DNA of 54,633 nucleotides from a virus (lineage: Duplodnaviria; Caudoviricetes), in IMG/VR virus record IMGVR_UViG_3300046171_000030, positions 1 to 54,633 of that record. One strand, given 5' to 3'. The stretch's first letter is position 1, and each line of letters begins with the position of its first letter. Below the pieces are notes generated by a model. That model searched no databases. It was not told where the DNA came from and saw only the letters and a list, made by a program, of their open reading frames with translations. Both the position numbers and the translations under genes were made by a program. Of the stretch, positions 4,186 through 51,565 are shown piece after piece.

Positions 4186-6363
4186 ATGGCAAAACGTATG
4201 GCAAAACAAATGGAACTCTTTGAGCCTGTAGAACGTGGCTTTGATGAGGGTGGGCTTATGGAAGAAGGTGGTATGGTTGATGAGGTGTCTGGCAACGATG
4301 TACCGCCGGGATCACTGCGTACTGAAGTGCGTGATGACATTCCTGCTCAACTTAGCGAAGGTGAATTTGTTTTTCCTGCAGACGTAGTGCGTTATATTGG
4401 CCTTGAGAACTTGATGCGTATGCGTCAAGAAGCAAAGCAGGGCTTGGCACAGATGGAAGCTATGGGTCAGATGGGCAATAGTGAAGAAGCCACTATAGAA
4501 GATAATTTACCTTTTGACATGTATGACCTTGACGTAGATGATGAAGACGAGTATAATAATATGGCTGTAGGTGGTATGCCTACAAAAGACCAAACAAGAC
4601 AAGCCTTTCAATTAGGTGGAACTGTTCAGCTGCCCGGTTTTACAGGTGTGCAAACTACCCAACCAACTGCTCCAACTACAGGTTACAGACCTTATGTAGA
4701 ACCTGTACAAGCTGCTTCTAGTCAGTTTATTCCTCAGTTTACAGGTGTGCAGTATACTACAGCCACGGGAACAACCAATATTCCTACTTTCGCTGAAACT
4801 GTAGGTAGAAATCCCGGTCAGTATGATGAACTTAGAACATATGTAAATGATGCGGGGCAGATACTACGGATACCTTTTAAAAACGGTCAGCCTATTTATC
4901 CAATCCCATATGGCTATAAATACCAAGCAGAAGAAGCGGTAACACCAACAGATACAACTACAGTGCCTACAACGGTAGCTGGGCAAGATGATAGTGGCGG
5001 TGATGGTTCAGATGCAATATCTGGTAGAGTAGCAACAACACTAGGTACAAATCCTGCTATTGGTGTATCTGTACCTACGGGCGGTGCAGTCAGTCAAGCA
5101 GATAAAGATGCATTTGGTGGTAATGTTGGTGCTTATAAAAATACGGACTACCGTAGTGCCGTTATAGATTTAGCTGGTTATCAATTAGGTTCGTTATCTC
5201 CAACTGCGGCTCTAGCTAATCAAATGGGTAAAAATTTCGGATTAACACAATCCGGTAATTTTAATGAAATTGGCACAGCTATGAATCAAGCCCGTAATGA
5301 AGCATTGTCTGCATTAGGTCTTGCTAATATGGGACAAGTAACTACAGATGCGCAGTATTCTGCTATAGCAGATTCTATGATTGCCGCAAAAGAAGCAGCT
5401 AAAAAAGGTAATTTTGCTTACGCTACAGTAACTAGAGATGCATTAGCAAAACATCAAGATGCAATTAAAGCTGGTCAAGTTGCTGCGATGACGGAATTAG
5501 GATATAAGTCAACTGATATTAATAATCCTGTTGCAGTAGCGCGGGCTATGGCATCTTACGATACTCAGATAGGCCAATTAAGTGGAGAAATTGATGCTGC
5601 AACACAGTCTGGTGCTGTTACGTCAGCGGTAACCAATGAACCAGTAAGAGATAAAGACCAAAACCCTGTAATGACAGAAAAAGGACTTGCTAAAGTAAAT
5701 AACTTAAAAGAGATATTATCTGCTAAAAAGGCTAAAAAAGATTCATTGCTTTCAACGGAAGTAGGGAAAGCGGCAGCAGTATCGGCAGCGTTTGATGCGG
5801 CAGGTTATAATGAAGATGATGACCCCGGACAGAACGCACCTGCAGGTGGATACACAGGTAACGTGAGTGAAGACCCTGGATTTGACTCTGGTTTTTCAGA
5901 TGGCTCACAAGGTAGTGAATCTGGCGGCGGCTATGGCTCAGATAGTGGTGGCGTTGGTGGTGCAGGTGATATGGGCGTTATATGTCTAACTGAAGATATG
6001 AAAGTAAAATGCAACGGTATAGTTGACTTTGTAACCAGAGTACAAGTAGGTGACATCATAGACAACACAGTAGTTACAGAAGTATTACACAAGCATATGC
6101 GTGAAGGTTACTACAAAGTTAATGGCGAGTTGAAGATTACTAATGACCATCCTGTACTTGTTAACGGTTCATGGAAACGTACAGAAGACTTAGTGCTTGG
6201 CGACTACATTAATAATGTAGAAGTAACGTCACTTGAGTATGTAGAGCAAGTAACACCGACAGTTTATATTGGTACAGCGGATGACCGCTATGATGTGTAT
6301 ACAGAAGGTGAAGTCTACACAGTGCATGGACAATATAAAAATGCATTAAAGAAAGCTGCGTAA
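4186..6363 (+). CDS. Virion protein with N-terminal DDIPAQLSEGEFVF module, xxGG motifs and C-terminal Hint domain; candidate maturation protein
   Basis: Between portal and scaffold; ATG 4186 after AAGGA; Hint motifs CLTEDMKV, ITNDHPV, YTVH. Confidence 0.7.
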   Translation: MAKRMAKQMELFEPVERGFDEGGLMEEGGMVDEVSGNDVPPGSLRTEVRDDIPAQLSEGEFVFPADVVRYIGLENLMRMRQEAKQGLAQMEAMGQMGNSEEATIEDNLPFDMYDLDVDDEDEYNNMAVGGMPTKDQTRQAFQLGGTVQLPGFTGVQTTQPTAPTTGYRPYVEPVQAASSQFIPQFTGVQYTTATGTTNIPTFAETVGRNPGQYDELRTYVNDAGQILRIPFKNGQPIYPIPYGYKYQAEEAVTPTDTTTVPTTVAGQDDSGGDGSDAISGRVATTLGTNPAIGVSVPTGGAVSQADKDAFGGNVGAYKNTDYRSAVIDLAGYQLGSLSPTAALANQMGKNFGLTQSGNFNEIGTAMNQARNEALSALGLANMGQVTTDAQYSAIADSMIAAKEAAKKGNFAYATVTRDALAKHQDAIKAGQVAAMTELGYKSTDINNPVAVARAMASYDTQIGQLSGEIDAATQSGAVTSAVTNEPVRDKDQNPVMTEKGLAKVNNLKEILSAKKAKKDSLLSTEVGKAAAVSAAFDAAGYNEDDDPGQNAPAGGYTGNVSEDPGFDSGFSDGSQGSESGGGYGSDSGGVGGAGDMGVICLTEDMKVKCNGIVDFVTRVQVGDIIDNTVVTEVLHKHMREGYYKVNGELKITNDHPVLVNGSWKRTEDLVLGDYINNVEVTSLEYVEQVTPTVYIGTADDRYDVYTEGEVYTVHGQYKNALKKAA

Positions 6364-6388
6364 GAGGCTTACTTAAATCTTACAATTA

Positions 6389-6438
6389 GTTGGCTACTCA
6401 CTCCCCACGCCCGACAGTGTGGCTACAGTGGCCCCAAC
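6389..6438 (+). promoter_or_regulatory. Structured mRNA leader of scaffold gene (hairpin with two CUAC/CC internal loops)
   Basis: GUUGG-CUAC-UCACU-CC-CCACGC-loop-GUGUGG-CUAC-AGUGG-CC-CCAAC, immediately 5' of the AAGGA RBS. Confidence 0.65.
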
Positions 6439-6454
6439 AAAAGGAAATACAAAC

Positions 6455-7327
6455 ATGAACGATACAATTATGGCTGAAGAAATGCAGTCACCAAAGAAAG
6501 TTGCGTTTGCAAATCGTAAATACACTAACGAAGAAAAACGCAAGATGGAAGAAGAAGAATTAGAACAGTTGATGAAGGAACAAAAAGGTGAAGTAGAACA
6601 AGAAGCTGCTGAACCACAAGAAGCTGAACCTACAAACGCAGAAGAAAAAACATTTAAAAAGCGTTACTCTGACCTGCGCAGGCATCAACAGCAGCAAGCT
6701 GATGAGTTTAAGAAGGAAATTGAGGCATTAAAATCTCAACTAAGTCAGGCAGCACAGAAAGAAATGAAACTGCCTAAGTCTGACGAAGACATTGAACAGT
6801 GGGCGGCAGACTACCCAGATGTAGCAGCCATTGTTGAAACAATTGCAATGAAGAAAGCACGTGAACAAGCTACTGCGCTTGAAGAACGCTTTAAAGCAGT
6901 TGATGAGATGCAGTACAGTGCCAAGAAAGAAAAAGCTGAAGCTGAACTAATGCGACTGCATCCTGACTTTGATGAGATTCGTGACAGTGATGACTTCCAC
7001 AATTGGGCAGATGATCAACCTAAGTGGGTACAAGATGCACTGTATGACAATGACAATGATGCACGTTCCGCTGCTAGAGCAATTGATTTGTATAAGGCTG
7101 ACATGGGTATTGCTAAAAGCAAACCTGCTAAAGATAAAGATGCAGCTAAGTCAGTATCTACAAAGAACTCAAGAAGTAGGCCACAAGACGATGAGTCTTC
7201 GACTTACTTAAAGGAATCACAAGTACAAAAGATGTCACCTCAACAGTATGAGAAGATGTCTGACGAGATCATGGAAGCTATCCGTAGTGGTAAGTTTATC
7301 TATGATGTATCTGGCTCCGCTAGATAA
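6455..7327 (+). CDS. Capsid scaffolding protein
   Basis: Acidic coiled-coil protein directly upstream of MCP; FKKRYSDLRRH, HPDFDEI, C-terminal EIMEAIRSGK. Confidence 0.8.
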   Translation: MNDTIMAEEMQSPKKVAFANRKYTNEEKRKMEEEELEQLMKEQKGEVEQEAAEPQEAEPTNAEEKTFKKRYSDLRRHQQQQADEFKKEIEALKSQLSQAAQKEMKLPKSDEDIEQWAADYPDVAAIVETIAMKKAREQATALEERFKAVDEMQYSAKKEKAEAELMRLHPDFDEIRDSDDFHNWADDQPKWVQDALYDNDNDARSAARAIDLYKADMGIAKSKPAKDKDAAKSVSTKNSRSRPQDDESSTYLKESQVQKMSPQQYEKMSDEIMEAIRSGKFIYDVSGSAR

Positions 7328-7573: not shown

Positions 7574-8635
7574 ATGGCTTTTACTACCGCAGCCGGGTAT
7601 GGTAACCTTCCTAACGGCAATTTTAGCCCAGTAATTTACAGCAAACAGGTGCAGCTTGCGTTCCGCAAGTCAGCTGTTGCTGAAGCTATCTCAAATTCCG
7701 ACTACTTCGGTGAGATTGCTAACATGGGCGATTCCGTGAAGATTATCAAGGAACCCGAAATCACAGTCAAGGCTTACGCCCGTGGTACAACCATCACGCC
7801 GCAAGACATTGACGATGAAGACTTCAACCTGACCATCGACAAAGCTAACTACTTTGCGTTCAAGGTTGATGACATTGAAGAGGCACACTCACACGTTAAC
7901 TTCCAGTCACTGGCAAGTGATCGTGCGGCGTATCGCCTTTCTGACCAGTTTGACCAAGATGTTCTTGGCTACTTGTCAGGTTACACTCAGTCTGCTTTAC
8001 ATGCAAATGCTGATACAGTAAACACAACTGTTAATGGTTCTGTAGCTGTTTCAACTGCTGGTACAGACGAATTGCTTGCCAGCATGAAGCTGGACGCAAC
8101 TGACTTTGCTGGCACAGGTGTTGCTGGTCAGTCAATCTCAATCCTGCCACGTACAGGTGCAGGTGCCGTTCCAACTGGTAACGGTGAAGCCAACCCACTT
8201 CAAATCGTTGCTCGTATGTCACGTCTGCTAGACCAGCAGAATGTAGACACACAAGGACGTTGGTTGGTTGTTGATCCTGTATTCATGGAAGTACTGAAAG
8301 ATGAAGATTCACGTCTTCTGGATGCAGACTTCGGTGGTTCAGGTCTGCAGAATGGTCTGGTGTTGAACAGCTTGCACGGCTTCCGTGTATACGTTTCAAA
8401 CAACCTGCCATCAATTGGTACTGGTGCTTCAACAACTGGTGGCATGAACGCTGATAACTTTGGCGTAATTGTTGCTGGTCATGATTCAGCTGTTGCTACT
8501 GCAGAGCAGATCAACAAGACTGAAACTTACCGTGACCCTGACAGCTTTGCTGACATTGTTCGTGGTATGCATTTGTATGGTCGCAAGATTCTTCGTCCTG
8601 AAGGTCTTGTTAACGCCATCTACAACTTGGCTTAA
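7574..8635 (+). CDS. Major capsid protein
   Basis: 353 aa after scaffold; AGGAG RBS; GDSVKIIKEP, FAFKVDDIE, DIVRGMHLYG motifs of podovirus coat proteins. Confidence 0.93.
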   Translation: MAFTTAAGYGNLPNGNFSPVIYSKQVQLAFRKSAVAEAISNSDYFGEIANMGDSVKIIKEPEITVKAYARGTTITPQDIDDEDFNLTIDKANYFAFKVDDIEEAHSHVNFQSLASDRAAYRLSDQFDQDVLGYLSGYTQSALHANADTVNTTVNGSVAVSTAGTDELLASMKLDATDFAGTGVAGQSISILPRTGAGAVPTGNGEANPLQIVARMSRLLDQQNVDTQGRWLVVDPVFMEVLKDEDSRLLDADFGGSGLQNGLVLNSLHGFRVYVSNNLPSIGTGASTTGGMNADNFGVIVAGHDSAVATAEQINKTETYRDPDSFADIVRGMHLYGRKILRPEGLVNAIYNLA

Positions 8636-17884: not shown

Positions 17885-20800
17885 ATGGCAATGTTTAAAG
17901 CATTTAAGCCTAGTGGCATGGAAAAGATAGCACGTTCTATGGGCTATCAAGGTAATATGCAAGGGTTTCAAGATTACTTGGCTACTAACCCTGCTCAACA
18001 GCAACAGATGGAGTTGTACACCAACAAAGCTATGCAAATGGCTAAAGGCGGCTATGCAAAAAATAAAAAAGTAAAGTATTTTAAGAATGGTGGTGGTACT
18101 GAAGGCGATGGTCCAACTGATGCAGCAAAGCATTACTTTATTCCAGACCCAAGCGACCATAAAGAGTCTATAAGAATACGTGTTGGCTCTAGGCAAGACA
18201 CTGCTGAAGCTAGAAGTAGAACAGGGTACAGTGAAGACACTGCCCTTGCTTTTAAACAGTTAAAACCTTACGAAGTTCGTGTAGCTGAATATGAAGCACA
18301 GAAAAAACAAGGGCAAGAAGATTTACTTGCCCAACAACAAAAAGACTATGATGCTGCTATGCAACGTAGAAAGGAAGAAGAAGAGCGTCAAAAACAGATA
18401 AACGATCCATCTAAAATGGTTGCAAAAGGTATTTATAAAGAAAACCCTAGACCTGATATTATAAGAATGAACCCCGCTGTAGAAGCACCAGATGGTTTTC
18501 AGTATGCTTATAATGAAACTGGTGAGCGTATCACTGTGCCTATTGATTTTGGCGGTTGGACTAGTATTTCGGATTCAAATCGACAGCAACAAAAACCTGC
18601 TATAACACCTGAACAACAACAACAACAATACTCACAACAAGTTGCTGCTCAGATGCAAAATAGGATGGGTGGTAGGTACGTGCCTGATGGGCCGCAATAT
18701 GTCATGGTTGGCAACCCTCCCGCAACAATTCCAAATGACCCGCTTAATCCAAAGTTCGATGGTAGGTACGTGCCTGATGGGCGGCAAAATCTCATCGTTG
18801 GCCACCTGCCCGCAACAATTCCAAATGACCCGCTTAATCCAGAGCCTGCTACATACAAACCATCACTGCCACCTATTTATCAAGCACCTTATTTATCAGG
18901 TACTAGATTTACCCCTGTAGGCCAGTATGTACAAGACCCTAATACTGGGCAACCTGTAGCACAAGCTTATACACCACTTAATCAAGGCTATGGTGCAGCG
19001 GCAACTAACTTCCAACAACAAATACAGGGTGGTTATGGTACAAATACAACAAATACAGATATATCTGAAACAACACTAACACAAAATAGAGGCGGCTATG
19101 TCGAACCACAGAAGTTTGCAGTAGGTGGTAGTGTTACAAACCCTGCTGGCACACAAGCTGGTACACCCGTATACACAGGCGCAAGTCCAACACAATATAC
19201 CACAACACCCGCAACTTATTATCAACCCGGAGATGATATTCCAGAAGGTAAAAAAGCTGGCGATGAAAAAACACCAGAAGTAAAAAATGCTGTTCCGGGT
19301 GTAGCACAGTTTAGTGTAGAGCAAATGTATAACCCTGCGCTTCCTGTTGGTGGTGTTACTATTGCCGCACAAACACAAACAGACCCAAGACAGAATATTG
19401 CTACAGGTACAGGTGAATTAACAGGTCAAGTATCAGTTCCTACAGCTACAGCTACTACTGCGCAGGCACAAGGAATAACACCTACAGATGCTAACGTGAT
19501 GCAGGCTGCACAAGCTGCACCGGGTGTAGACAGCGCAATGAACGCTACACAAGCTGCACAGGCTAATCCTCAAGACCCTCGTGCGCAGATTACTGCAGCA
19601 CAACAAACTGCCTCATCAGTGGGTAATTTACAGGCTGCACAAGGTAATGCTTCACTTATTAACAATCCTGTACAACGTCAGATACAATCAGGTGAGTTGA
19701 TATCAGGTGTAGCTGACGCACAGGTAGCTTCACAGTTTACTGAGCAAATTCAAGCTGCACAAGCTACGCCTTCACAGCAAGCTACTGTACAGGGGCAACT
19801 GAGCAACCTGATGCAACAGTTTCAAGGTGGTAACACACCAGCTTGGGCTGCAGGTGCTATGCGGAGTGTTACTTCCGCTATGGCAGCTAGGGGTTTAAGT
19901 GCATCTAGTCTTGCAGGACAGGCAATGGTGCAGGCTGCTATGGAAAGTGCATTGCCTATTGCACAGGCCGATGCTCAAACACAAGCACAGTTTGAAGGTC
20001 AGAACTTATCTAACAGACAGCAACGTGCTATGCTTGCTGCACAACAACGTGCGCAGTTTATGGGTCAGGAGTTTGACCAAGCGTTCCAGTCACGTGTACA
20101 AAACTCTGCACGTATTGGTGACATAGCTAACATGAATTTCACTGCTGAACAGCAGGTACAGCTAGAGAACTCACGTGCTGTGAATACAATGAACCTGAAC
20201 AACCTGTCTAACTCACAGGCAATGGTCATGGCTGAAGCTGCTGCACTGGCACAGCTAGATACAGCTAATCTAAGTAATCGCCAACAGTCTGCAGTGCAGA
20301 ACGCACAAAACTTTTTGTCGGCTGACATGGCTAACTTGTCTAACAGGCAGCAGACTGAACTGTTTAAAGCACAGCAGCGTGTACAGTCTTTGTTTACAGA
20401 TCAAGCTGCTACTAATGCTGCTGCACAGTTTAATGCAACCAGTCAAAATCAGGTTGACCAATTCTTTGCGAGTTTAGGTTCACAAGTATCACAGTTTAAT
20501 GCCACACAGCAAAATGCACAAGCACAGTTTAATGCAGGTCAAACTAATACTGTTAATCGTTTTAATGCTGAACTGAATAATCAACGTGATCAGTTTAACG
20601 CACAGAACCAGCTTGTGATTGCACAGTCAAATGCACAATGGCGTAGGCAGATTGCTACTGCAGATACTGCAGCAGTTAATCGTGCTAATGAATTAAATGC
20701 TAATGCTGTTCTTGATATTAGTAAAAATGCTTACGATAATTTGTGGACATTTTATGGTGATACAATGGAATGGGCATGGAAATCTGCAGAAAATCAGATT

Positions 20801-21196
20801 GATCGCGTAAATGCATTGGCAATTGCTGAATTAGATGCGACCACACGTCAACAAATAGCAGATGAACAATCACAAACTGCAGCAGGTAATGCCGTAGGAT
20901 CATTAATTAGTACAATTGCCGGATCATATTTCTTTGGTATGTGTTGGGTAGCACGTGAAGTATATGGCAAACAAGATGTTCGTTGGTTGATATTCCGCAC
21001 TTGGCTAAAATATGAAGCACCTAAATGGTTAAACAAACTATATGAAAAACATGGTGAAAATTTTGCAGAGTTTATTAGTGACAAACCAGCACTTAAATGG
21101 GTTGTACGTAAGTTGATGGATAAGGTTGTAGCCAATAAAAAACCCTTGACTTTTAATACAGAATATGTAAAACTAATAAACACGAAAGAGGTATAA
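17885..21196 (+). CDS. Internal virion (ejection) protein, Q/A/N-rich, with C-terminal CWVAREVYG domain
   Basis: 1103 aa; AQFNA/NLSNRQQ repeats; xxGG motifs; position among internal virion genes. Confidence 0.7.
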   Translation: MAMFKAFKPSGMEKIARSMGYQGNMQGFQDYLATNPAQQQQMELYTNKAMQMAKGGYAKNKKVKYFKNGGGTEGDGPTDAAKHYFIPDPSDHKESIRIRVGSRQDTAEARSRTGYSEDTALAFKQLKPYEVRVAEYEAQKKQGQEDLLAQQQKDYDAAMQRRKEEEERQKQINDPSKMVAKGIYKENPRPDIIRMNPAVEAPDGFQYAYNETGERITVPIDFGGWTSISDSNRQQQKPAITPEQQQQQYSQQVAAQMQNRMGGRYVPDGPQYVMVGNPPATIPNDPLNPKFDGRYVPDGRQNLIVGHLPATIPNDPLNPEPATYKPSLPPIYQAPYLSGTRFTPVGQYVQDPNTGQPVAQAYTPLNQGYGAAATNFQQQIQGGYGTNTTNTDISETTLTQNRGGYVEPQKFAVGGSVTNPAGTQAGTPVYTGASPTQYTTTPATYYQPGDDIPEGKKAGDEKTPEVKNAVPGVAQFSVEQMYNPALPVGGVTIAAQTQTDPRQNIATGTGELTGQVSVPTATATTAQAQGITPTDANVMQAAQAAPGVDSAMNATQAAQANPQDPRAQITAAQQTASSVGNLQAAQGNASLINNPVQRQIQSGELISGVADAQVASQFTEQIQAAQATPSQQATVQGQLSNLMQQFQGGNTPAWAAGAMRSVTSAMAARGLSASSLAGQAMVQAAMESALPIAQADAQTQAQFEGQNLSNRQQRAMLAAQQRAQFMGQEFDQAFQSRVQNSARIGDIANMNFTAEQQVQLENSRAVNTMNLNNLSNSQAMVMAEAAALAQLDTANLSNRQQSAVQNAQNFLSADMANLSNRQQTELFKAQQRVQSLFTDQAATNAAAQFNATSQNQVDQFFASLGSQVSQFNATQQNAQAQFNAGQTNTVNRFNAELNNQRDQFNAQNQLVIAQSNAQWRRQIATADTAAVNRANELNANAVLDISKNAYDNLWTFYGDTMEWAWKSAENQIDRVNALAIAELDATTRQQIADEQSQTAAGNAVGSLISTIAGSYFFGMCWVAREVYGKQDVRWLIFRTWLKYEAPKWLNKLYEKHGENFAEFISDKPALKWVVRKLMDKVVANKKPLTFNTEYVKLINTKEV
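18670..18841 (+). repeat. In-frame 90-bp tandem duplication (GRYVPDG...PATIPNDPLNP x2)
   Basis: 18670-18751 and 18760-18841 identical except 7 clustered mismatches. Confidence 0.9.
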
Positions 21197-30480: not shown

Positions 30481-30482
30481 AG

Positions 30483-32684: not shown

Positions 32685-32720
32685 GTGTGTTACTCCTTTC
32701 TGTAGAGTGAATGAGGCATA

Positions 32721-39487: not shown

Positions 39488-39555
39488 GTCTATTCTCCTT
39501 TACATTAGTATTAACAATAGTGGTATTACAGTTATCCACAACAACAACTCCATCT

Positions 39556-40614: not shown

Positions 40615-40625
40615 GCTCACCTCCA

Positions 40626-41665: not shown

Positions 41666-41994
41666 GTGTCATTCTCCTCATCTTCTGTTTCTTCGTAAGG
41701 GTCTGTGTCTTTATCACCTTCAAACAACCACGGCTGAATGTACTCACTGTGTAGCCCTAGATTGTACAGGTTAGCGTCTGACCAATGGCTGTCATGTACA
41801 GGTCTTAATTCACCTACAGGATTATCAAAGATGCTCTCATGTGTCAAGACATCCCATTGATCGTACCCACTGGACACCATGACATCTCCAATGGCAAAGA
41901 CACTACCCATGCCAAGTTTACTATCCCTGACTTCTATTTCAAAGTCTTGCTCAACTACAAAACGTACTGTGATTTTCTTCTTAGCTGTTTCCAT
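41662..41994 (-). CDS. Hypothetical protein
   Basis: 110 aa, AAGGAG RBS. Confidence 0.55.
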   Translation of the reverse strand: METAKKKITVRFVVEQDFEIEVRDSKLGMGSVFAIGDVMVSSGYDQWDVLTHESIFDNPVGELRPVHDSHWSDANLYNLGLHSEYIQPWLFEGDKDTDPYEETEDEENDT

Positions 41995-42089
41995 GTTACT
42001 TCTCCTTTAATGCTGTTGTTACAAAATATACTAGTAACATTATGCCTGTCACAAGGTATGTCACAATGAACACATCCTCTGGAAGTATC

Positions 42090-42665
42090 TCAGGTATTTG
42101 ATTTTGCACACATAGCAGTGTGTTGCAGTTCGTTATCATGGTTCACCTTATCTGCACATTGTACTTGGTAATTGAATAGCTTGATTGCTTTGATCTTGTC
42201 AATCTTAAACCACTCACCTCTACGTTCTTCAGCAAAGTGTTCAAAGATTTTGTGCATCTCTTTCTCTTTCTTCGCTCTATTATCTGAGTAAACTACAGCC
42301 ACTACACTGTAATCACGAAAGGGTGATGATGTTTGGTAGCCTTCACATCTGTGGTACGCATCAATAGCCTTACCGACTTTTATCCAGTCATAGAAGTTTG
42401 GATTCCAGACAGCATACACATCACCTGCTTCTTCAGCATCATACAGGGCTTCTACTAGCTTGTGGATGTCATTGATCTTGGCGTTCTTAAACACTACACG
42501 ATCAACAGAACCACCTTGCTGTATGTACCCATCTAACGTGCGATATTGATTTTTGTAGTACACTAAGCCCTTGTCATTCATGTGATGTGGTACACCTACC
42601 TCACGCCAAGTGTAGCCATCATAGCGTTTGCCATCGGCACGAACATCACCTCTTATTGGTTTCAT
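42090..42665 (-). CDS. GIY-YIG (T5orf172-like) nuclease domain protein
   Basis: VYAV, WIKVGKA, YQTSSP, RRGEWF. Confidence 0.72.
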   Translation of the reverse strand: MKPIRGDVRADGKRYDGYTWREVGVPHHMNDKGLVYYKNQYRTLDGYIQQGGSVDRVVFKNAKINDIHKLVEALYDAEEAGDVYAVWNPNFYDWIKVGKAIDAYHRCEGYQTSSPFRDYSVVAVVYSDNRAKKEKEMHKIFEHFAEERRGEWFKIDKIKAIKLFNYQVQCADKVNHDNELQHTAMCAKSNT

Positions 42666-42779
42666 CGGTTCATCTCCTTTGAAAATGTAACGGCGTTACA
42701 AAAAATGAGTGACAGTGTTAGTTTGGCACTTTTGGTGGTCAGGTAGTTCTCACCTGCACTGTCACTCTGGTTACCCACC

Positions 42780-43025
42780 TTACTTAGCTTCGTGAATTAC
42801 AAAGTCATTGCCATTCTTAGATACTACACGATACAGGTTCCAGAATGGATTGCCGTAGTAGCGAATGTGCTTGCCATCATTTACCTGTAAGAACTTGCCA
42901 CTGGCTGATGCACCTACATAGTATTTGCCCATGCGATTGAATGAGCGAACATTCTGGCGATCAATGGTTGGCTTTGTACCTGTCAGGGCGTTGAGGATAT
43001 TGATAGCTTTTACTTTTACAAACAT
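42780..43025 (-). CDS. Hypothetical protein
   Basis: 81 aa, AAGGAG RBS. Confidence 0.6.
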   Translation of the reverse strand: MFVKVKAINILNALTGTKPTIDRQNVRSFNRMGKYYVGASASGKFLQVNDGKHIRYYGNPFWNLYRVVSKNGNDFVIHEAK

Positions 43026-43062
43026 GATTACATCTCCTTTGTACTGATTAAGTTGGTTAAGG

Positions 43063-43090
43063 TGAGTAGTTTTATGCCATACTCAGGGCA
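43063..43090 (-). promoter_or_regulatory. Candidate H-type RNA pseudoknot in 5' leader
   Basis: UGCC-C-UGAGUA-U-GGCA-UAAAAC-UACUCA. Confidence 0.5.
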
Positions 43091-43189
43091 GTAAGTCAAG
43101 AGGCTTGAGCCATGCGCTTGGCAAACCTAGCTGCCTTACGCTGAGTGGTCTTGCTCTTGTTGTGGCTACGCCAATGGTCACGCTTGCCA

Positions 43190-43357
43190 TCAGCCTTTGG
43201 GGTCTTCAAGTTCTTCATCTTTTCGATTTTGATTTGCAAGGTCTTTCTCCTTTTTTCTGTTGTATTTAGTTTTGTCAGGCACTACTTGTGACCTACGCCT
43301 GTTGGTCTGAAGCATTGCCCTCGCTATAGGATTTACACTATTAGGTTTTATTCTCAT
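43190..43357 (-). CDS. Small basic protein
   Basis: NPIARAM...VVPDKTKYNRKK. Confidence 0.55.
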   Translation of the reverse strand: MRIKPNSVNPIARAMLQTNRRRSQVVPDKTKYNRKKEKDLANQNRKDEELEDPKG

Positions 43358-43368
43358 TGTCAAGCCCT

Positions 43369-43596
43369 CTATGCAAACTCCAATGCCCATGATGAAAGGT
43401 ATTCAGCATGACGCATAGCCTCATCACGAGTGTTGTGGGATGATACATGAGATTTACCATTGGTATAATCAATGTCCAATGTCCAGCACCCAATGTCCTT
43501 GACCACCGTGACATGGTTTGTGCCAAGAGAATTGACACCACGCCACACGTTCTTTGTGCCTGCCAATAATTGCCAATGTGATACAAAATGTTTCAT
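43369..43596 (-). CDS. Hypothetical protein
   Basis: 75 aa, GGAG RBS. Confidence 0.5.
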   Translation of the reverse strand: MKHFVSHWQLLAGTKNVWRGVNSLGTNHVTVVKDIGCWTLDIDYTNGKSHVSSHNTRDEAMRHAEYLSSWALEFA

Positions 43597-43597
43597 C

Positions 43598-43816
43598 TTA
43601 TTTCTCCATCTGTTTGATTATATACTTAGCACGATTGATGTACTGCCTAGCAGTTTCGCCATCACCCAATGCGATACGTTCTTGTGCATCAGATAATACA
43701 GACATCGCCAGCCTTGTCAAGCCACCCATCAAAGGCTCTTGCCAATCGGTAATCAATTCATCTATCCACTCTTGTGGACACCCATACATAGTGTCATTCA
43801 TATCATTACCCCTCAT
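43598..43816 (-). CDS. Hypothetical protein
   Basis: MYGC...AMSVLSDAQE...ARQYINRAKY. Confidence 0.6.
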   Translation of the reverse strand: MRGNDMNDTMYGCPQEWIDELITDWQEPLMGGLTRLAMSVLSDAQERIALGDGETARQYINRAKYIIKQMEK

Positions 43817-43982
43817 CTGCCATTGTCAATATGAAACCAGTTAGACCACACGCCGATAGCGCAAGGCACATAATTGATGCGACCATGTGTTCTGAGTGTA
43901 GCAGTATAAACGACACAAAGAAAAACAGTAGGCACATACCTAGTCCAATAGTCATTAGAACTAATCTGTCAAACATTTTCAT
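43806..43982 (-). CDS. Small two-helix membrane protein missing from ORF track (58 aa)
   Basis: AAGGAG RBS; two hydrophobic stretches. Confidence 0.6.
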   Translation of the reverse strand: MKMFDRLVLMTIGLGMCLLFFFVSFILLHSEHMVASIMCLALSACGLTGFILTMADEG

Positions 43983-44009
43983 TCTCCTTTTTTGTAACGG
44001 CGTTACATT

Positions 44010-44882
44010 TTAGCAATCATACACAAAGCCTGATGTGTCTTGCCATGCAGTCTTACCTTTAGGCAACAGCCCAACGAATACACTTTGCGGATCACTAGGC
44101 CGATAGTCATGTGCATCACCATTGATAACACGCTTGCCCATAAACTGCTTGGGCAAAACCTTGTCAGCATTACGCAATACGACAGCCACATTCCAACCCT
44201 TCATAAACGCTGTTTCGATAAACAAACCATTAGATTCATTCAGCGAGAATGTCAAGCTGTAGTTTGGTATATGTGACACATCACGCCGAATGTTTTTGGT
44301 GTAGTCATAGAACACCACATCAGGAAAGGCACTGAACATCTCAGGAAACAGCTTTTCCCACATAACATCCTGCACCACATTAGGCCGCACAGAACATGTC
44401 ACACCCAGCCTGTCAGCTTTGCGCTTGTGCAAACCTATCTCGTGCAACAACCTAGCCTTGAATTGGTCACGGTATTCCATCCACAACAGCATACGAGTGA
44501 CACGAGCAATGTGGACATGATGACTGCCATCAATGACCATGTGCTTTTGCCCATGCCCACTGTAGGTAAGACACGCCAAGCCACAACCTATAGACGCATC
44601 ATTGCAGCCATTGTAGCCAGATGCCCATGATGCAGCCATTGCAATGCCAGCAGTAAGCACATCCTCTTTGTCGGACTTGACCAGCTTGGGATTGCGAGTG
44701 AGTAGGTCAGGTAGCCTAGACCAGTCAAACGTATCATCAGGCCGCAAAGCATTGGCTATTTTGGCTCGTGCTGCCCCACGACAGGCAATGATGAGTGGGT
44801 CATTGTCGTAATGCTCTCGCAATGTCTGGTTAGCCTTACGCATATAGTCACGATAGTTTTTAAGAGTGATATTCATAGTCAT
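44010..44882 (-). CDS. GP88-family (radical-SAM-like) protein
   Basis: CNDASIGCGLACL, RPNVVQD, FYDYTK, VINGDAHDYR. Confidence 0.7.
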   Translation of the reverse strand: MTMNITLKNYRDYMRKANQTLREHYDNDPLIIACRGAARAKIANALRPDDTFDWSRLPDLLTRNPKLVKSDKEDVLTAGIAMAASWASGYNGCNDASIGCGLACLTYSGHGQKHMVIDGSHHVHIARVTRMLLWMEYRDQFKARLLHEIGLHKRKADRLGVTCSVRPNVVQDVMWEKLFPEMFSAFPDVVFYDYTKNIRRDVSHIPNYSLTFSLNESNGLFIETAFMKGWNVAVVLRNADKVLPKQFMGKRVINGDAHDYRPSDPQSVFVGLLPKGKTAWQDTSGFVYDC

Positions 44883-44908
44883 TCTCCATTTTGTAACGCC
44901 GTTACATT

Positions 44909-45091
44909 TTACAGTTTGATTTTACCTTCATCCGTAATCAATACAGATTGAACACATACGCTATACCCCAGATCACGCAATTCTTGTGCGGTTTCTGTTG
45001 CCACATGCAAAGAGTGCGTAGCTAACTGGCATCCCCAATTATCCATTGCTTTTGGGTGGGCATAGTTTACGATGAACAATTCATTTTCCAT
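44909..45091 (-). CDS. Hypothetical early protein
   Basis: 60 aa, exactly bounded by two palindromes. Confidence 0.5.
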   Translation of the reverse strand: MENELFIVNYAHPKAMDNWGCQLATHSLHVATETAQELRDLGYSVCVQSVLITDEGKIKL

Positions 45092-45147
45092 TTTGTAACC
45101 TCGTTACATTTTGTTGTTAGACACTGGTCAAACCCTGACCATACTTA

Positions 45148-45176
45148 AAATTAGCACAAACCTAGTCCTGTGTCAA
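45148..45176 (-). promoter_or_regulatory. Early promoter
   Basis: TTGACA-N17-TAATTT with extended TG. Confidence 0.6.
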
Positions 45177-45404
45177 TGCAGCCAGCCTAGCCTGTTGCTT
45201 TGCAATAATATATTTACGCCTCTGCAATTCCTCCATCCACTGGTTTTCCAGATAAGTTTTCATTGCGCTATCCGCTTGACCTGTACGCAATACAGGATAA
45301 AGCCACTCTTGCCGGAAGCGTTCTTGATTAGGCATATCAACCCAGCTTGAACGTACATCCTTGCCCACTACAACAGGCCGATCATTTTCCCATGCTATCT
45401 TCAT
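45162..45404 (-). CDS. Hypothetical early protein
   Basis: 80 aa downstream of promoter and palindrome. Confidence 0.55.
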   Translation of the reverse strand: MKIAWENDRPVVVGKDVRSSWVDMPNQERFRQEWLYPVLRTGQADSAMKTYLENQWMEELQRRKYIIAKQQARLAALTQD

Positions 45405-45478
45405 TTTGTTTGCACCCCATAATTTGTAACGCCGTTACATTTTGTTGTTAGAAATCAGCCACATCTCGACTGTTATTA

Positions 45479-45507
45479 ATAGTAGCACAAACCCCATGTG
45501 GTGTCAA
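45479..45507 (-). promoter_or_regulatory. Early promoter
   Basis: TTGACA-N17-TACTAT with extended TG; shares GGTTTGTGCTA with the 45148 promoter. Confidence 0.7.
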
Positions 45508-45588
45508 TATAGCCAACCCCCCAACCCCACAACCCTACCAGCCGACCCCATGATATGACCGTAGGTATGATGGGCAGAAAATTGGCAC

Positions 45589-45618
45589 AAAAAAATACCC
45601 CGCTGTGAAGCGAGGCAT
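45589..45618 (-). terminator. Rho-independent terminator
   Basis: Minus strand ATGCCTCGCT-TCAC-AGCGGGGTAT-TTTTTT. Confidence 0.75.
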
Positions 45619-45641
45619 CGTTGAGATATTTTGTAACGCCG

Positions 45642-45788
45642 TTACATTTTTTGATATTGATCGTTAAAATCACGGTGCAAAACAATATGCAAATATAAAA
45701 GATAATGATCAGCACGATCAGCAATTGGTAAAGAATTATATAATGCGACTCTTTCAGCTAGCGTCATTGTATCAATATTGTATGTCAT
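45642..45788 (-). CDS. Small early protein (48 aa, MTYNIDT...)
   Basis: GAGG RBS; lies between two terminators. Confidence 0.45.
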   Translation of the reverse strand: MTYNIDTMTLAERVALYNSLPIADRADHYLLYLHIVLHRDFNDQYQKM

Positions 45789-45803
45789 GGGATTGCCTCT
45801 CAT

Positions 45804-45837
45804 AAAAAGAGATAGGCCAGCAATGAGCCAGCCTATC
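45804..45837 (-). terminator. Rho-independent terminator
   Basis: Minus strand GATAGGCTGGC-TCATT-GCTGGCCTATC-TCTTTTT. Confidence 0.65.
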
Positions 45838-45850
45838 AATGGGGTTTCAA

Positions 45851-46498
45851 TTATGCTGCAAGGGATTTTAGTTTTGGTAATTCTGGCTTGGCATTGCGCT
45901 TGGCGTTTGTCAATCCTGCTTCGATTGCTTCATTATTGCCTTTTTCAATCCATTTCCAAAATGCTTTTGGATTGCCAGCAAATGCCGATTTAATGAAATC
46001 AGCGTATTGATCAGCAATTGATTTTTCATTTGGCGTATCGAGTAAGGCACCATCATTGCCGGTTTCACTTTCACCGGCATCACTTGCGCTTTCAGTTTTT
46101 GCGCTGGTGGTTTTAAAATGATCAGCGGCAAATTGACGAACACTGGTTATCTCTTTTACATGGTTTTTAATCAATGCTTTAAAATCAGTATCGGATAAAA
46201 CGTGCAGATCATTCTTTGCACATTTACGCATACCGCCTAGTTCCATTGCGAGTGATCTTTCTTGTTTAGCGTCATTATCAAAAAAGACACCTAAACCACC
46301 CTTTGTCATTGCGGCATAAAAAGCTTTGCCTTTGTCTTTTTCGGTGTCTGCTTTTGCCTTTTCTGCTTTTGCCATAACGGCAATCGTTGCCTTTAATGCT
46401 AGCGGATTTGCCCGCATTTTATCGTTAAAATCATTAGCGTTATCTTTTACTGATTGAAAGATTGTTGCAGCTATTTGGATTTGCTTTGAAATGGTCAT
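45851..46498 (-). CDS. First early gene, K/A-rich hypothetical protein
   Basis: ATG 46498 after AAGGA; own promoter and terminator. Confidence 0.65.
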   Translation of the reverse strand: MTISKQIQIAATIFQSVKDNANDFNDKMRANPLALKATIAVMAKAEKAKADTEKDKGKAFYAAMTKGGLGVFFDNDAKQERSLAMELGGMRKCAKNDLHVLSDTDFKALIKNHVKEITSVRQFAADHFKTTSAKTESASDAGESETGNDGALLDTPNEKSIADQYADFIKSAFAGNPKAFWKWIEKGNNEAIEAGLTNAKRNAKPELPKLKSLAA

Positions 46499-46565
46499 TG
46501 GTTTTTCCTTTGTCTGATCGGGCAAATGGCCGCCCGTTGGCCTTCGATCTTTTTGATCTATATAG

Positions 46566-47080: not shown

Positions 47081-47119
47081 TTGACAGGGGTTGACATAAT
47101 TTGCTATAATTGGTATAAC
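47081..47119 (+). promoter_or_regulatory. Tandem overlapping sigma70-like promoters
   Basis: TTGACA(47081)-N18-TATAAT and TTGACA(47091)-N17-TATAAC. Confidence 0.75.
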
Positions 47120-48045: not shown

Positions 48046-48708
48046 ATGGCACCTAGAGATAAAGAAAATGAAATGATTGAAGAGTTGCGTAGGCGTATTC
48101 GTAGAGCCGCAGCTAACAAAAAACCGGGCAAGCAGAACACACCTTCGATGCTAGAGGAAATGGGCGGTCGCTCTAAAATAGGACGTGCTAAAATTAAAGA
48201 TGCTTTAAAGGGTTCAGCAAAGCAATCTAAACCGTCTATGATGGGCGGTAAAATGACTGTAGCTGAGATGGAAGCCAAACTTAAAAAGAAAGCTGCAGAG
48301 AACAAAGAACTTGCAGCAACTCGCGCACGTGCTAAGAAAGCTGCTGCAAATAAAAAACCTACTACGCAAGTAAAGCCATCTATTATGAAAGAAATTGAAT
48401 CTAAAACAGGTAAGGCCACAGGTCAAGGTGTATTTGCATCTTCTGCAAAAAAGAAGAAGGAGCCAGCTAAAAAAACAACAACAGCAAAGAAGGCACCTGC
48501 GCCAAAAAAAGCACCACCTGCAGCTAAAAAAGATACTAGTACGACTTTTAAAGAGGCATTTGCTGCAGCACGTAAGGCAAATAAAAAAGAGTTTACGTGG
48601 AAAGGCAAGAAGTATGCCGCAGTAACTAAAACTGAAGTTAAGAAGTCTGGCTCTAAAAGTCTTAGAGAATATCTCAACAAAAAATCTGGTAAAGCTAAAG
48701 GGAAATAA
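48046..48708 (+). CDS. Histone H1-like K/A/P-rich basic protein
   Basis: AKKAPAPKKAPPAAKK; FKEAFAAARK..KKEFTWKGKKY domain. Confidence 0.65.
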   Translation: MAPRDKENEMIEELRRRIRRAAANKKPGKQNTPSMLEEMGGRSKIGRAKIKDALKGSAKQSKPSMMGGKMTVAEMEAKLKKKAAENKELAATRARAKKAAANKKPTTQVKPSIMKEIESKTGKATGQGVFASSAKKKKEPAKKTTTAKKAPAPKKAPPAAKKDTSTTFKEAFAAARKANKKEFTWKGKKYAAVTKTEVKKSGSKSLREYLNKKSGKAKGK

Positions 48709-48712
48709 AACA

Positions 48713-49078
48713 ATGTCTGGTAAGAAGAAAATTGTTCGTGACTATTCGGAGATGGATACTGCCGATCTAAAGAAAATGATTCAGAAAGATAGCGGTGCTT
48801 CTAAGCAATCTGCTAAAGCGGCATTTAAAGAGTTAGAGAAGCGTGAAGGCGATATGGGCTACAGCGTAACTTTAATTCTTGGTGGACGTAAACGTGAGCC
48901 TGACACAATGGATTTACCTAAGTCAAAGCCTAAGAAAAAGCCAGCAATGGCTAGAGGTGGTATGGCATACGGCAAAGAGCATATGTATGTCGCAGGTGGT
49001 TCAGTACAAATGAATCCGGGCCTGAAGGCATTGAAAGCTGCTAGCCCAGAAGCTTACAACAAGATCACGGGTAAGTAA
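48713..49078 (+). CDS. Basic protein with MARGG and YVAGG motifs
   Basis: 121 aa; NPGLKALK C-terminus. Confidence 0.6.
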   Translation: MSGKKKIVRDYSEMDTADLKKMIQKDSGASKQSAKAAFKELEKREGDMGYSVTLILGGRKREPDTMDLPKSKPKKKPAMARGGMAYGKEHMYVAGGSVQMNPGLKALKAASPEAYNKITGK

Positions 49079-49079: not shown

Positions 49080-49376
49080 ATGGCTCCTCGTGCGCCTCAA
49101 AGACCAACAGCCAAAAAACCTGCTCCTAAACGTAACTATAGAAAAGAACAGGCATATGATTCACAGCCTCACGTTAAAAAGAAACGTGCTAATCGTAACT
49201 TGGCACGTAGACGTGCTATGAGGGCGGGTCTTGTACAAAAGGGTGATGGCAAGGATGTGCATCACGTAAATGGTAACGCATTAGATAAAAATGGTGCCAC
49301 TAAAGTAGTGAAGGCATCACAGAATAGATCGTACCCTCGTAAACGTAATGCAGGTAAGCGTAACGCCCGTGCATAG
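49080..49376 (+). CDS. HNH-like basic protein
   Basis: KDVHHVNGN...SQNRS. Confidence 0.65.
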   Translation: MAPRAPQRPTAKKPAPKRNYRKEQAYDSQPHVKKKRANRNLARRRAMRAGLVQKGDGKDVHHVNGNALDKNGATKVVKASQNRSYPRKRNAGKRNARA

Positions 49377-49896
49377 AATTGAAGCTGACATACGCAAGTG
49401 GTCACACGAGTTCCTAGAAGTACCTAATAAGAAACTTAATGGATTACCGCCTTGCCCCTACGCTAAACAGGCGTGGCTAGACAACAAAGTTGTGTTCAGC
49501 ATAAACACAGGGGTAGATGGACTAGCAAAAGAAGTGGCAGACTTTGAGTCACATGACTATGACATAGTTGTATGGGCTAGTCAGTACCTACCTGAAATGC
49601 AATACCTAGATGGATGGTGTGATGGTGTAAATGAAGCCATGTCCATTACAGGTAAAGATATGCACCTCATGGTGTTTCATCCAGACTACGATGCTGAAGA
49701 AGCTGGTCTGGACTTTTTAGTTGATGAGGACGCAACAGATAACAGCCTAGTGTACTGCATGGTGTTTGTACAGAGGCTATCAACCCTAGACGATGCAGCA
49801 CTAAGTCTGGAGAAGTCTGGGTACTACAAGCACTTTCCAGTGGATGTGTTTCAATCATTAGTAATAGACAGACGGAGATTAAGAAATGGTAGCTAA
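49348..49896 (+). CDS. DUF1415-like protein
   Basis: CPYAK, VFHPDY, VQRL. Confidence 0.6.
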   Translation: MQVSVTPVHRIEADIRKWSHEFLEVPNKKLNGLPPCPYAKQAWLDNKVVFSINTGVDGLAKEVADFESHDYDIVVWASQYLPEMQYLDGWCDGVNEAMSITGKDMHLMVFHPDYDAEEAGLDFLVDEDATDNSLVYCMVFVQRLSTLDDAALSLEKSGYYKHFPVDVFQSLVIDRRRLRNGS

Positions 49897-50062
49897 GAAA
49901 AAGATGCGTGGCGGCGGAATGGCTAAAATGGCAAAGAAGAAGATGATGCGTGGTGGCATGGCAGCTAAGACAGCACCGAAGCGTATGCGTGGCGGTGGCA
50001 TGCCTAAGATGGCAGCTAAAAAGAAAATGATGATGCGTGGTGGGGCTGTTAAAAAGAAATGA
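49886..50062 (+). CDS. Unannotated 58-aa polybasic protein with four MRGG repeats
   Basis: MVAKKKMRGGGMAKMAKKKMMRGGMAAKTAPKRMRGGGMPKMAAKKKMMMRGGAVKKK; GGAG RBS. Confidence 0.8.
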   Translation: MVAKKKMRGGGMAKMAKKKMMRGGMAAKTAPKRMRGGGMPKMAAKKKMMMRGGAVKKK

Positions 50063-50181: not shown

Positions 50182-50936
50182 GTATTACGCATTATCCAGA
50201 AGTAGTGACGTTTGGTGGTGGCGTAGGCGACTACCCATACTTCCTGCAGGTATCTCGTGGTTTAATTACCGGACACAAACGTGTATTTAAGTTTGGGTAC
50301 AACGGCGACATTGACGACTCAGAAGAAACTATTTGGGATGTAGGCGGTCTGTATGCTTATTCAGCTAGTGCTGTTACCATGACAGCTACCAGTAGTTCGG
50401 GTGCTACAGACGAAGATGTCGAAGTAACCATTCAAGGTTTGGACGCAAGTTATAACGAGTTATCTGAAACAGTAACTCTAGACGCATCAGGAACGGCAAC
50501 GACAACAGGAAGTTTTTTGCGTGTATATCGTGTCTTTGTGTCTAGCGGTACTGCATCCGCAGGCAACATTACTATTGCTAACGGCGGCACAACCTACGCA
50601 TATGTTTCAGCGGCTGACCAACAAACATTGATGGCCTTGTGGACTGTACCTGCTGGATATACAGCATATTTATTTCAAGTAGACACCACTGCGTTTACGG
50701 TACAGAACAATAAAGTTGCCACGATACGTATGCTCACCCGTGAACTAAATGGTGTGTTCCGCACGCAAAACAAGTTTGATTTGTTCGAAGGGTCGTATCA
50801 TCAAGACATCACTTGCCCACAGCCGATCCCGGAAAAAACAGACATCGAGTTTCGTGCCATTGCAGACAGTTCAAACGCTGACCTACGAGTTGCAGCATCT
50901 TTCGATATCATTTACATAGCGAACACAGCCCCATGA
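50178..50936 (+). CDS. Putative virion structural protein
   Basis: 252 aa beta-rich; FKFGYN, FLRVYR, PEKTDIEFRA. Confidence 0.6.
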   Translation: MSITHYPEVVTFGGGVGDYPYFLQVSRGLITGHKRVFKFGYNGDIDDSEETIWDVGGLYAYSASAVTMTATSSSGATDEDVEVTIQGLDASYNELSETVTLDASGTATTTGSFLRVYRVFVSSGTASAGNITIANGGTTYAYVSAADQQTLMALWTVPAGYTAYLFQVDTTAFTVQNNKVATIRMLTRELNGVFRTQNKFDLFEGSYHQDITCPQPIPEKTDIEFRAIADSSNADLRVAASFDIIYIANTAP

Positions 50937-51271
50937 TACAAACCAAAAATAGAACAGTAGGTGTAGAACTGACTACAAGCAATCAAGACTTGTACACAGT
51001 GCCTGCAAATTTTGAAACAAACATTAAATCTATTTACGTGAACAATGCCTCATCTAGCAGTGTTACATTTAGTCTTGATTGGTACGACAGTCAAAATGCA
51101 ACATACTATACGTTAGCTGAAACAGTAAACCTTGTGCCAAATAGTTTGTTACAGATTACAGAAGCTATGTGGCTGTATAAAGCTGACAAGTTTCGTGGTC
51201 TTGCTAGTGCAAACAGTGCAGTGACTGTAGTGTTTAATGTAGAAGAAACATTCGTACCCCAAAGGAATTAG
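50933..51271 (+). CDS. Putative virion structural protein
   Basis: DLYTVPA...IKSIYVNN beta-sandwich pattern. Confidence 0.55.
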   Translation: MIQTKNRTVGVELTTSNQDLYTVPANFETNIKSIYVNNASSSSVTFSLDWYDSQNATYYTLAETVNLVPNSLLQITEAMWLYKADKFRGLASANSAVTVVFNVEETFVPQRN

Positions 51272-51283
51272 AGGAGATAGGAG

Positions 51284-51565
51284 ATGGTACGTGTCCCTAA
51301 AAAAGCCCCCCTTAAAAAGAAAACCACACAAGCTAGAGCGAAAAAGAAACCGACTGGAAAGGTTAGCCTTTCGCAAGGGGGTGCGCCACAAAGCAAGTCG
51401 AGAGTTAATGAAGCTGGCAACTACACTAAGCCCGGAATGAGGAAACAACAGTTTAATCGTATCAAAGCTGGTGGTAAAGGCGGTTCGCCCGGTCAGTGGT
51501 CTGCACGTAAAGCGCAGATGTTAGCTAAAGCATATAAGGCAGCAGGCGGTGGATATAAAAACTAA
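51284..51565 (+). CDS. Basic protein (GQWSARKAQ; DUF5872-like N-part)
   Basis: GGSPGQWSARKAQMLAKAYKAAGGGY. Confidence 0.6.
   Translation: MVRVPKKAPLKKKTTQARAKKKPTGKVSLSQGGAPQSKSRVNEAGNYTKPGMRKQQFNRIKAGGKGGSPGQWSARKAQMLAKAYKAAGGGYKN

Follow-up and report, generated by a model that had tools for sequence, protein, structure and literature searches.

Motif-bearing proteins of the structural strand

The 54,633-base window analysed here, IMG/VR record IMGVR_UViG_3300046171_000030, is the whole or near-whole genome of an HMO-2011-type podophage, a kind abundant in the sea: its TerL, portal, and capsid proteins share 84-87% identity with those of phage HMO-2011, its DNA polymerase carries a DnaJ-like insert, and its gene order is syntenic. 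Structural and packaging genes lie on the + strand, in a block running from ~47300 across the window ends to 26587, in the order ~20 small genes, lysozyme, TerS, TerL, portal, post-portal, scaffold-like, capsid, adaptor, nozzle, and fibre, with four more genes beyond the fibre, two of them encoding more than 1100 amino acids (aa). Proteins from this strand share a short motif, [FMY]xxGG, hereafter the tag, usually present in disordered stretches as two to four copies separated by a few residues. The motif is a real, modular, protein-level element that is enriched, paired, strand-specific, and conserved in position. Tags recur at equivalent sites in eight related phages, and three classes of tagged proteins occur in all nine genomes, namely the post-portal protein, a large protein resembling internal virion proteins, and small Lys-rich proteins. 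A first-pass annotation of the window had listed 14 copies of the motif, with Leu also allowed at the first position, in five late proteins; all 14 are present in the translations, two of them one base away from the coordinate given. A hydrophobic or aromatic residue within two residues past GG, which the same annotation had described as usual, follows 12 of the 14 copies, LSQGG-AP being ambiguous and FKNGG-GT lacking one.

The post-portal protein (4186..6363, +) is 725 aa long when read from the ATG at 4186, as is the database protein P0001, the longest open reading frame (ORF) starting from a GTG at 4153. Between a conserved N-terminal module and a C-terminal module that begins with Cys lies a variable stretch of low complexity. 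An overlapping tag pair, FDEGG-L-MEEGG (4240..4272, +; copies at 4240 and 4258), stands directly ahead of a conserved core of ~75 aa (4273..4506, +; ...DDIPAxLSEGE[FY]V... and then a helix) and runs without linker into invariant core columns, and two further tags, MAVGG-M and FQLGG-TV (4561..4620, +; copies at 4561 and 4606), follow past an acidic linker behind the core. The core is the only part that aligns by tblastn to 13 HMO-2011-type phages, and the 14 records matched by the protein, two of which are HMO-2011, all belong to this group. The family counts 5862 + 1270 members in metagenomes (90% clustering); a profile of the N-terminal module found 3737 representatives at 50% identity, and conservation was counted in the best 150 of these 3737. 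The upstream pair (GG, four residues, GG, with F/M/Y ahead) is found in 149 of the 150, and in seven of the eight relatives, CRP-603 being without it. The downstream tag is likewise present in 149 of the 150 (all 150 if Leu is allowed) vs 30 of 569 control windows taken from these proteins; its first residue is interchangeable (M/Y/F in 65/45/39), and the residue past GG is V/F/M/Y/L in 140 of the 149. The remainder of the protein is hypervariable, with lengths of 438 to 1395 aa in cultured phages, and natural minimal forms of 170-185 aa retain all three copies. Neither Pfam, PHROG, NCBIfam (0.001), nor PDB sequences gave a match to the whole of ORF 4186, and its N-terminal 145 aa had no family match even at E <= 10. 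An AF2 model of residues 1-175 reached a pLDDT of 52 (44-row alignment), with helix 65-97 alone fairly confident, and the tagged N-terminal segment is thus predicted to be disordered on its own.

The C-terminal module of the post-portal protein (5983..6363, +) resembles Hint, or bacterial intein-like, domains in its Cys start past a Gly-rich linker and in a T-x-x-H block (T-N-D-H). Its matches to Intein_splicing (E 0.007) and Vint (E 0.027) are weak and below Pfam cut-offs. BLASTP to the Hint region of the relative P0016 gave E 5e-5, and post-portal relatives have matches of E 1e-5 to 1e-6 to Hom_end_hint and Vint, most of them short of the Pfam cut-offs; P0072 does reach a cut-off, that of Phage_L5_gp82, which is not a Hint family. 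Judged from these resemblances, the start of the module may be a self-cleavage point unrelated to the tag, although the usual C-terminal H-N of Hint domains is H-G here and Hint activity would concern one bond at the start of the module, apart from the tags. Extra domains stand ahead of the tagged module in relatives P0100, P0044, P0072, P0238, and P0132 and in CRP-9 (L007 10933-15120); those seen in post-portal relatives include DUF6973, mycobacteriophage L5 gp82-like, lysozyme-like, and Hint domains, as well as precomputed PF18013 and PF00478. In CRP-345 (L003) and CRP-13 (L006), the post-portal proteins run through poly-G or poly-S into C-C-F-I-M-L-E-A-R-Y-G... modules. With their varied extra domains, post-portal relatives resemble the polyvalent, effector-carrying head proteins described in an excerpt of PMC5512222, and they share with MuF/SPP1 gp7 and polyvalent proteins a gene beside the portal, a conserved module with variable domains, and presumed packaging or delivery (same excerpt). 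The likeness to MuF is limited to gene position and modular build, as ORF 4186 has no Phage_Mu_F or other Pfam match; moreover, its module spans only ~75 aa and is flanked by tags, an arrangement not described for polyvalent proteins in that excerpt.

The second class is represented by a large Gln/Ala-rich protein (17885..21196, +) that has no Pfam, PHROG, or NCBIfam match; its gene follows those for adaptor, nozzle, and fibre, in the position of an internal virion protein. Its residues 473-1090 are conserved in seven of the eight relatives. A conserved N-terminal module of ~70 aa closes with a tag pair at residues 49-66, MAKGG-Y and FKNGG (18038..18094, +; residues 52 and 66), the copies starting at 18038 and 18080 (18079 in the first-pass annotation). 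Tags lie at residues 49-64 of the homologs in HMO-2011, CRP-345, MW202701, CRP-207, and CRP-603, and the CRP-1 homolog has the same tagged module at an internal position (residues 445-510). A single copy, FAVGG-SV (19115..19129, +; first placed at 19114), is found in the variable middle, and single mid-protein copies also occur in the CRP-1, CRP-9, and CRP-603 homologs, at positions not established as homologous. Past a Gly-/Ser-rich linker, the protein ends in a Cys-initiated module, C-W-V-A-R-E-V-Y-G... (20942..21196, +), which is common to HMO-2011, and homologs in five other phages stop just ahead of it. The Cys-initiated ends of both large tagged proteins suggest self-cleavage or anchoring at a second site, unrelated to the tag.

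Small Lys-rich proteins encoded upstream of TerS form the third class and have their tags in the C-terminal tail, often at a distance of 5-10 residues from the terminus. One is a 121-aa basic protein (48713..49078, +) with MARGG-M (48947) and YVAGG-SV (48986) in its C-terminal half; only this tagged part is conserved in HMO-2011 gp67 (68-76% identity). A 58-aa Lys/Met/Arg/Gly peptide (49886..50062, +), whose gene falls below the default ORF cut-off, contains four M(M)RGG units ~13 aa apart (49904, 49943, 49985, and 50030). Its homologs are small ORFs in HMO-2011, where the ORF is unannotated between gp66 and gp65 (L001 4503-4655), and in CRP-345, where it is annotated as gp77. Compared with HMO-2011, the peptide gene shows 25 identical codons, 14 synonymous differences, and 10 non-synonymous ones, with a GGAG ~10 nucleotides (nt) upstream. 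The possibility that it is a frame artefact was rejected, as the other frame is stopped in three genomes and the substitutions favour the Lys/Met/Arg/Gly frame. In P0328, P0334, and P0357, the call of the homolog of the preceding gene, ORF 49348, continues through the peptide region in the other frame as an acidic Trp-rich tail; these are run-on gene calls in metagenome contigs that either have no stop at this point or are open in both frames. ORF 49348 itself encodes a 182-aa protein (49348..49896, +); its stop and the start of the peptide gene overlap, and it is present in three of the nine genomes, exactly those with the peptide gene; its AF2 model has an alpha/beta fold (pLDDT 71.7, pTM 0.72). 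A 93-aa basic protein (51284..51565, +) carries the degenerate copies LSQGG (51368) and IKAGG (51461), and its CRP-603 homolog, compared by eye, has YAKGG and YKAGG ahead of the same conserved stretches.

Other small proteins of this region were noted for their composition. A 220-aa Lys/Ala/Pro-rich, histone-H1-like protein (48046-48708) contains M-G-G variants and no clean tag, and a 98-aa Arg/Lys-rich protein (49080-49376) also has no clean tag; BLAST found no homologs of these two very basic proteins in the eight relatives. Two small tagged proteins, of CRP-9 (L007 3566-4048) and CRP-603 (L008 2648-2917), include a zinc-knuckle, C-x-x-C-x-G-x-G-C-x-x-C-x-G-x-G, a kind of motif that the DNA polymerase of the group also has in its DnaJ-like insert. 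A tblastn search of 50,697 phage records yielded no match for ORF 49886, five for the N-terminus of ORF 17885, and two for ORF 48713, all of them HMO-2011-type.

Enrichment, anatomy, and spread of the motif

Enrichment was first assessed in the 47 + strand ORFs of at least 40 aa returned by a greedy ORF caller, against 2000 shuffles of each of three kinds (whole protein, 30-aa blocks, and 15-aa blocks). The pattern [FMY]xxGG was seen 17 times vs 7.7-9.2 expected, an approximately twofold excess matched by 4-16 of 2000 shuffles, and the same pattern with a hydrophobic residue next was seen 9 times vs 2.1-2.5, an approximately fourfold excess reached by 1 of 2000. The pairing of copies asserted by the first-pass annotation was confirmed: neighbouring copies 4-20 aa apart numbered seven vs 0.09-0.17, and four proteins had a close pair vs ~0.1, with 0 of 2000 shuffles reaching either value. 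On the opposite strand, 37 ORFs contained three copies vs 2.7-2.9 expected, and no pairs. Conditioning on GG in the window alone gave a weaker test, with F/M/Y at -3 in 14 of 76 GG sites vs a background of 0.10 (p = 0.02).

The comparison was extended to the structural halves of eight relatives (HMO-2011, CRP-1, -345, -207, -13, -9, -603, and an uncultured freshwater genome), the remaining halves being added for four of them, which together with the window gave five whole genomes. On the structural strand of these five, the tag with a following hydrophobic residue was seen 45 times vs 10.9 expected and close pairs 18 times vs 0.72, i.e., 25-fold, each with 0 of 300 shuffles, while on the replication strand the tag with a hydrophobic residue was at expectation (4 vs 4.1) and there were 0 pairs. 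Taken individually, relatives had 7-11 such tags vs 1.4-2.2 expected, with 0 of 500 shuffles in six of the eight; the exceptions were CRP-207, reached by 1 of 500 shuffles, and CRP-603, which was not significant (3 vs 2.1). Two control phages had no excess, namely T7 (6 vs 6.6, no pairs) and pelagiphage HTVC010P (1 vs 4.0). The count of late vs replication proteins that the first-pass annotation had proposed as a check therefore gives an excess on the structural strand and none on the replication strand. Its claim of a shared element on late proteins holds at the protein level: copies are enriched and paired, and they keep their positions in homologs, so that neither lack of enrichment nor lack of conservation, which it had named as grounds for abandoning the claim, was observed.

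Aligned copies refine the motif to (K/M)-G-[M/Y/F]-[A/N/Q]-x-G-G-[V/M/F/Y/L]-V. A logo of 109 copies reads (K/M)-G-[M/Y/F]-A-x-G-G-[M/L]-V-K-K, with M/L at +1 and V at +2 in 36; it is symmetric around GG, and the residues past GG are conserved as strongly as those ahead. A nucleotide signal (Shine-Dalgarno-like GGAGG) was rejected as the source of this pattern, as the GG codons of tags are dominated by GGTGGT like those of other GG sites and GGAGG accounts for 3% vs 6%. The surroundings of the tag are acidic in the post-portal protein and basic in the small proteins, and because it occurs in both settings, charge is not the thing read. The motif is without mention in those genome papers of the HMO-2011-type group that were searched, a set without the original HMO-2011 paper, or in search listings; in a term search of PMC9038755, as excerpted, the only motif discussed was the polymerase CXXCXGXG.

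Tags also appear on proteins beyond the three shared classes. ORF 52471 has no tag in the window, whereas its homologs in CRP-13 and CRP-9 are extended at the C-terminus by a tagged segment, so the tag moves as a module. Lys-rich proteins of 230-345 aa with no detected mutual similarity terminate in a tag, and the post-portal proteins of CRP-207 and CRP-9 have a terminal tag-like stretch and a poly-Lys tail, that of CRP-9 lacking the M/Y/F residue. The small proteins and the ORF 17885 module have a similar stretch ahead of the tag (...PE[AV]..K...MGY...), so that some copies at least share a common origin and are not convergent. This kinship, together with single copies in fibre and decoration proteins that resemble chance matches, could be read as a sign that the motif has no common function and represents relics of one mobile peptide segment recombined among late genes, mixed with chance matches in Gly-rich proteins. 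We consider this improbable: a relic would decay, whereas the five defining positions persist while their neighbours, and even the identity of the first residue, turn over, and close pairs exceed expectation 25-fold.

A possible binding tag or cleavage site

These properties point to a motif that may serve as a multivalent docking or virion-loading tag, placed in disordered segments and read by a component of head assembly. We favour this reading tentatively, at somewhat less than an even chance. The first-pass annotation had put forward two functions, recognition sites of a phage-encoded processing enzyme or, alternatively, a packaging tag, and from the sequence comparisons the packaging tag appears to fit better than protease sites. 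Its disorder, its multivalency, its portability, and the constraint on residues before and after GG suggest that the tag would be bound rather than cut. Its binder would belong to the morphogenesis module, and the tagged proteins would be virion cargo, located in the head or condensing DNA as far as gene position and composition indicate.

CRP-9 and CRP-13 possess only the morphogenesis and packaging modules in common with HMO-2011-type phages (excerpt of PMC8528129). Since they nonetheless carry tags, the reader should be sought in the morphogenesis module or in a conserved host protein. In the proposed mechanism, one conserved head component (portal, scaffold, or capsid interior) would bind every copy with low affinity, as a peptide ligand, and several copies together would recruit or retain otherwise unrelated cargo proteins in the particle. 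Three candidate readers flank the post-portal gene or lie just beyond it. The portal (1898..4036, +; SU10_portal, E 5.6e-27) is 64-87% identical across the nine genomes. The second candidate is an acidic, Gly-poor protein (6419..7327, +; phrog_13678, function unknown), for which a scaffold role is inferred because its gene sits between the post-portal and capsid genes. The third is the major capsid protein (7574..8635, +; phrog_267, E 2.4e-67; Phage_capsid_4, E 1.7e-8). A complex prediction combining the capsid protein, the scaffold-like protein, and the N-terminal 150 aa of the post-portal protein scored 0.00, below the mark, in a run without controls, and gives no verdict.

A short portable peptide on unrelated cargo is what was found, in three unrelated protein classes of all nine genomes and in the tagged extensions. 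In this respect the tag resembles the T4 internal-protein targeting sequence and encapsulin cargo-loading peptides, which are, as far as the partial sources describe them, short portable peptides in disordered tails that direct proteins into an HK97-fold shell. The tag differs from these peptides in sequence, in having several copies per protein, and in occupying internal as well as terminal positions; compared with encapsulins, the shell protein here is a phage capsid protein (Phage_capsid_4), and binding between tag and shell is putative. A stronger version, possible but doubtful in our view, is a general cargo-loading code, used by HMO-2011-type phages and by the many marine phages that have taken over their head module. 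A single conserved pocket would bring proteins with at least two copies to the procapsid, in the manner of encapsulins, the cargo including the histone-H1-like basic proteins and the hypervariable, effector-carrying post-portal protein. If true, tailed phages without maturation protease would have their first example of a sequence-defined loading tag shared by a whole family, and the tag would offer a handle for loading foreign proteins into these capsids. How podophages without prohead protease choose the contents of their heads is poorly understood, and most knowledge of ejection proteins comes from P22 and T7. A five-residue core motif common to post-portal, large internal, and small basic proteins provides a concrete, mutable handle on this question, and either outcome, loading by tag or an unrecognised enzyme, would be new for this phage group. 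As a separate observation, an atlas search returned only viral clusters, apart from one weak lead (0.84) that points to a family of crAss cargo proteins. Likenesses between the core and other known peptide ligands were considered and dropped as unsupported.

The enzyme-based proposal of the first-pass annotation was not supported, although cleavage as such is weighed separately below. Neither Pfam (71 proteins), PHROGs (64), nor NCBIfam (17) returned a peptidase family in the window, adenain-type proteases included, apart from the S74 self-cleaving chaperone of the fibre and the weak Hint-like end of ORF 4186. Many phages keep a prohead protease between portal and scaffold genes; ORF 4186 occupies that position, without a match to the prohead protease families (S77, S78, S80, U35, and S49), and cannot be recognised as an enzyme. 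ORF 49348, coupled to the peptide gene, was considered as a hidden protease and set aside: Foldseek vs PDB gave 0 matches at E <= 0.001 and none protease-like, the weak top rows being Rossmann-type methyltransferases, and only three of nine genomes have it. In term searches of genome papers of the group, with the original HMO-2011 paper outside their range, the word "protease" did not turn up, nor did a virion proteome.

The motif itself also departs from the adenovirus model. Adenovirus protease sites, (M/I/L)-X-G-G and (M/I/L)-X-G-X, are cleaved as (M/I/L)-X-G-G|X and (M/I/L)-X-G-X|G (excerpt of PMC4246237). The similarity lies in the GG core, the upstream hydrophobic residue, and the distribution over several virion proteins including small basic DNA-associated precursors (same excerpt). 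The adenovirus rule fits only four of the 14 window copies. In the other ten the hydrophobic residue is at P5 instead of P4, one position further from GG, and the residue two ahead of GG is mostly A, N, Q, K, and similar (109-copy logo and 149 post-portal tags). P1' and P2' are moreover as conserved as the P side. A further difference is that the present system is a bacterial podovirus, in which cleavage is hypothetical.

Cleavage could still be the work of an unrecognised phage or host protease, cutting either behind GG or inside the motif while the head matures, thereby trimming the post-portal polyprotein into modules and chopping basic precursors into DNA-binding peptides, as in the adenovirus core. 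We regard this as unlikely, if the most serious of the competing explanations. The tagged small proteins are basic like adenovirus core precursors, and the post-portal gene has a place where many phages encode their prohead protease, but cutting at the N-terminal pair would free a 6-residue piece beside invariant core residues, and because many tags are 5-10 residues from the C-terminus, cleavage there would remove almost nothing.

Several points nevertheless weigh against a docking or loading tag. Three of them favour cleavage: tags stand at module boundaries of long multi-domain post-portal proteins, the window post-portal protein starts exactly where longer relatives have ...GG and then M, and the four M-R-G-G units of ORF 49886, the copies that obey the adenovirus rule, match it literally. 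Two concern the statistics, as the motif pattern was fixed after inspection of the data and the pooled p-values overstate independence because homologous copies in related genomes are counted separately. Finally, a perfect sigma-70 consensus (12/12: TTGACA, 18 nt, TG-TATAAT) lies at 47081-47110 (+), upstream of the first + strand gene, in a region where promoter-like sites are not above shuffles (7 vs 8.9); it may thus be that these basic proteins of small size are made early, with a role in the cell and not in the head.

Such early expression would suit a host factor (nucleoid, ribosome, or chaperones) that reads the motif after ejection or early in infection and is common to SAR116, Roseobacter, and other hosts. 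Besides the promoter upstream of the small-protein genes, this explanation can draw on the nucleic-acid-binder-like composition of these proteins, on the occurrence of the same motif across differing hosts, and on the absence of an own RNA polymerase or protease among the phage proteins (Pfam on window proteins). We give it a low probability, on a par with relics: where replication modules have been exchanged, the tag stays with the morphogenesis module, it flanks the core of a gene located between those for portal and scaffold, and no candidate host partner is known.

The docking reading also has to be set against a tag that functions without a dedicated reader. The motif would then be a sticker, a self-associating or turn-forming unit (hydrophobic, GG turn, hydrophobic) through which disordered internal proteins adhere to one another and, via Lys-rich flanks, to DNA, building a cohesive core or a post-portal oligomeric ring. 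Its symmetry around GG, its multivalency in disordered context, its indifference to acidic or basic settings, and the fact that some small proteins are little beyond motif repeats would all agree with such a unit. That 149 of 150 post-portal proteins keep a tag at the same site suggests instead a defined contact rather than generic stickiness, and we rate the sticker as rather unlikely, slightly below cleavage and slightly above the host factor.

Other features of the genome

TerL is encoded at 315-1886 (+), ahead of the portal gene. Replication and nucleotide-metabolism genes fill the - strand from 26658-46525 and include the family A polymerase with its DnaJ-like zinc motif (32727-34769; DnaJ_CXXCXGXG, E 5e-5 in Pfam). 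No tRNA genes were found in the window. A tyrosine integrase is encoded at 36737-37666 (-; Phage_integrase, E 5e-18), and HMO-2011 likewise has one.

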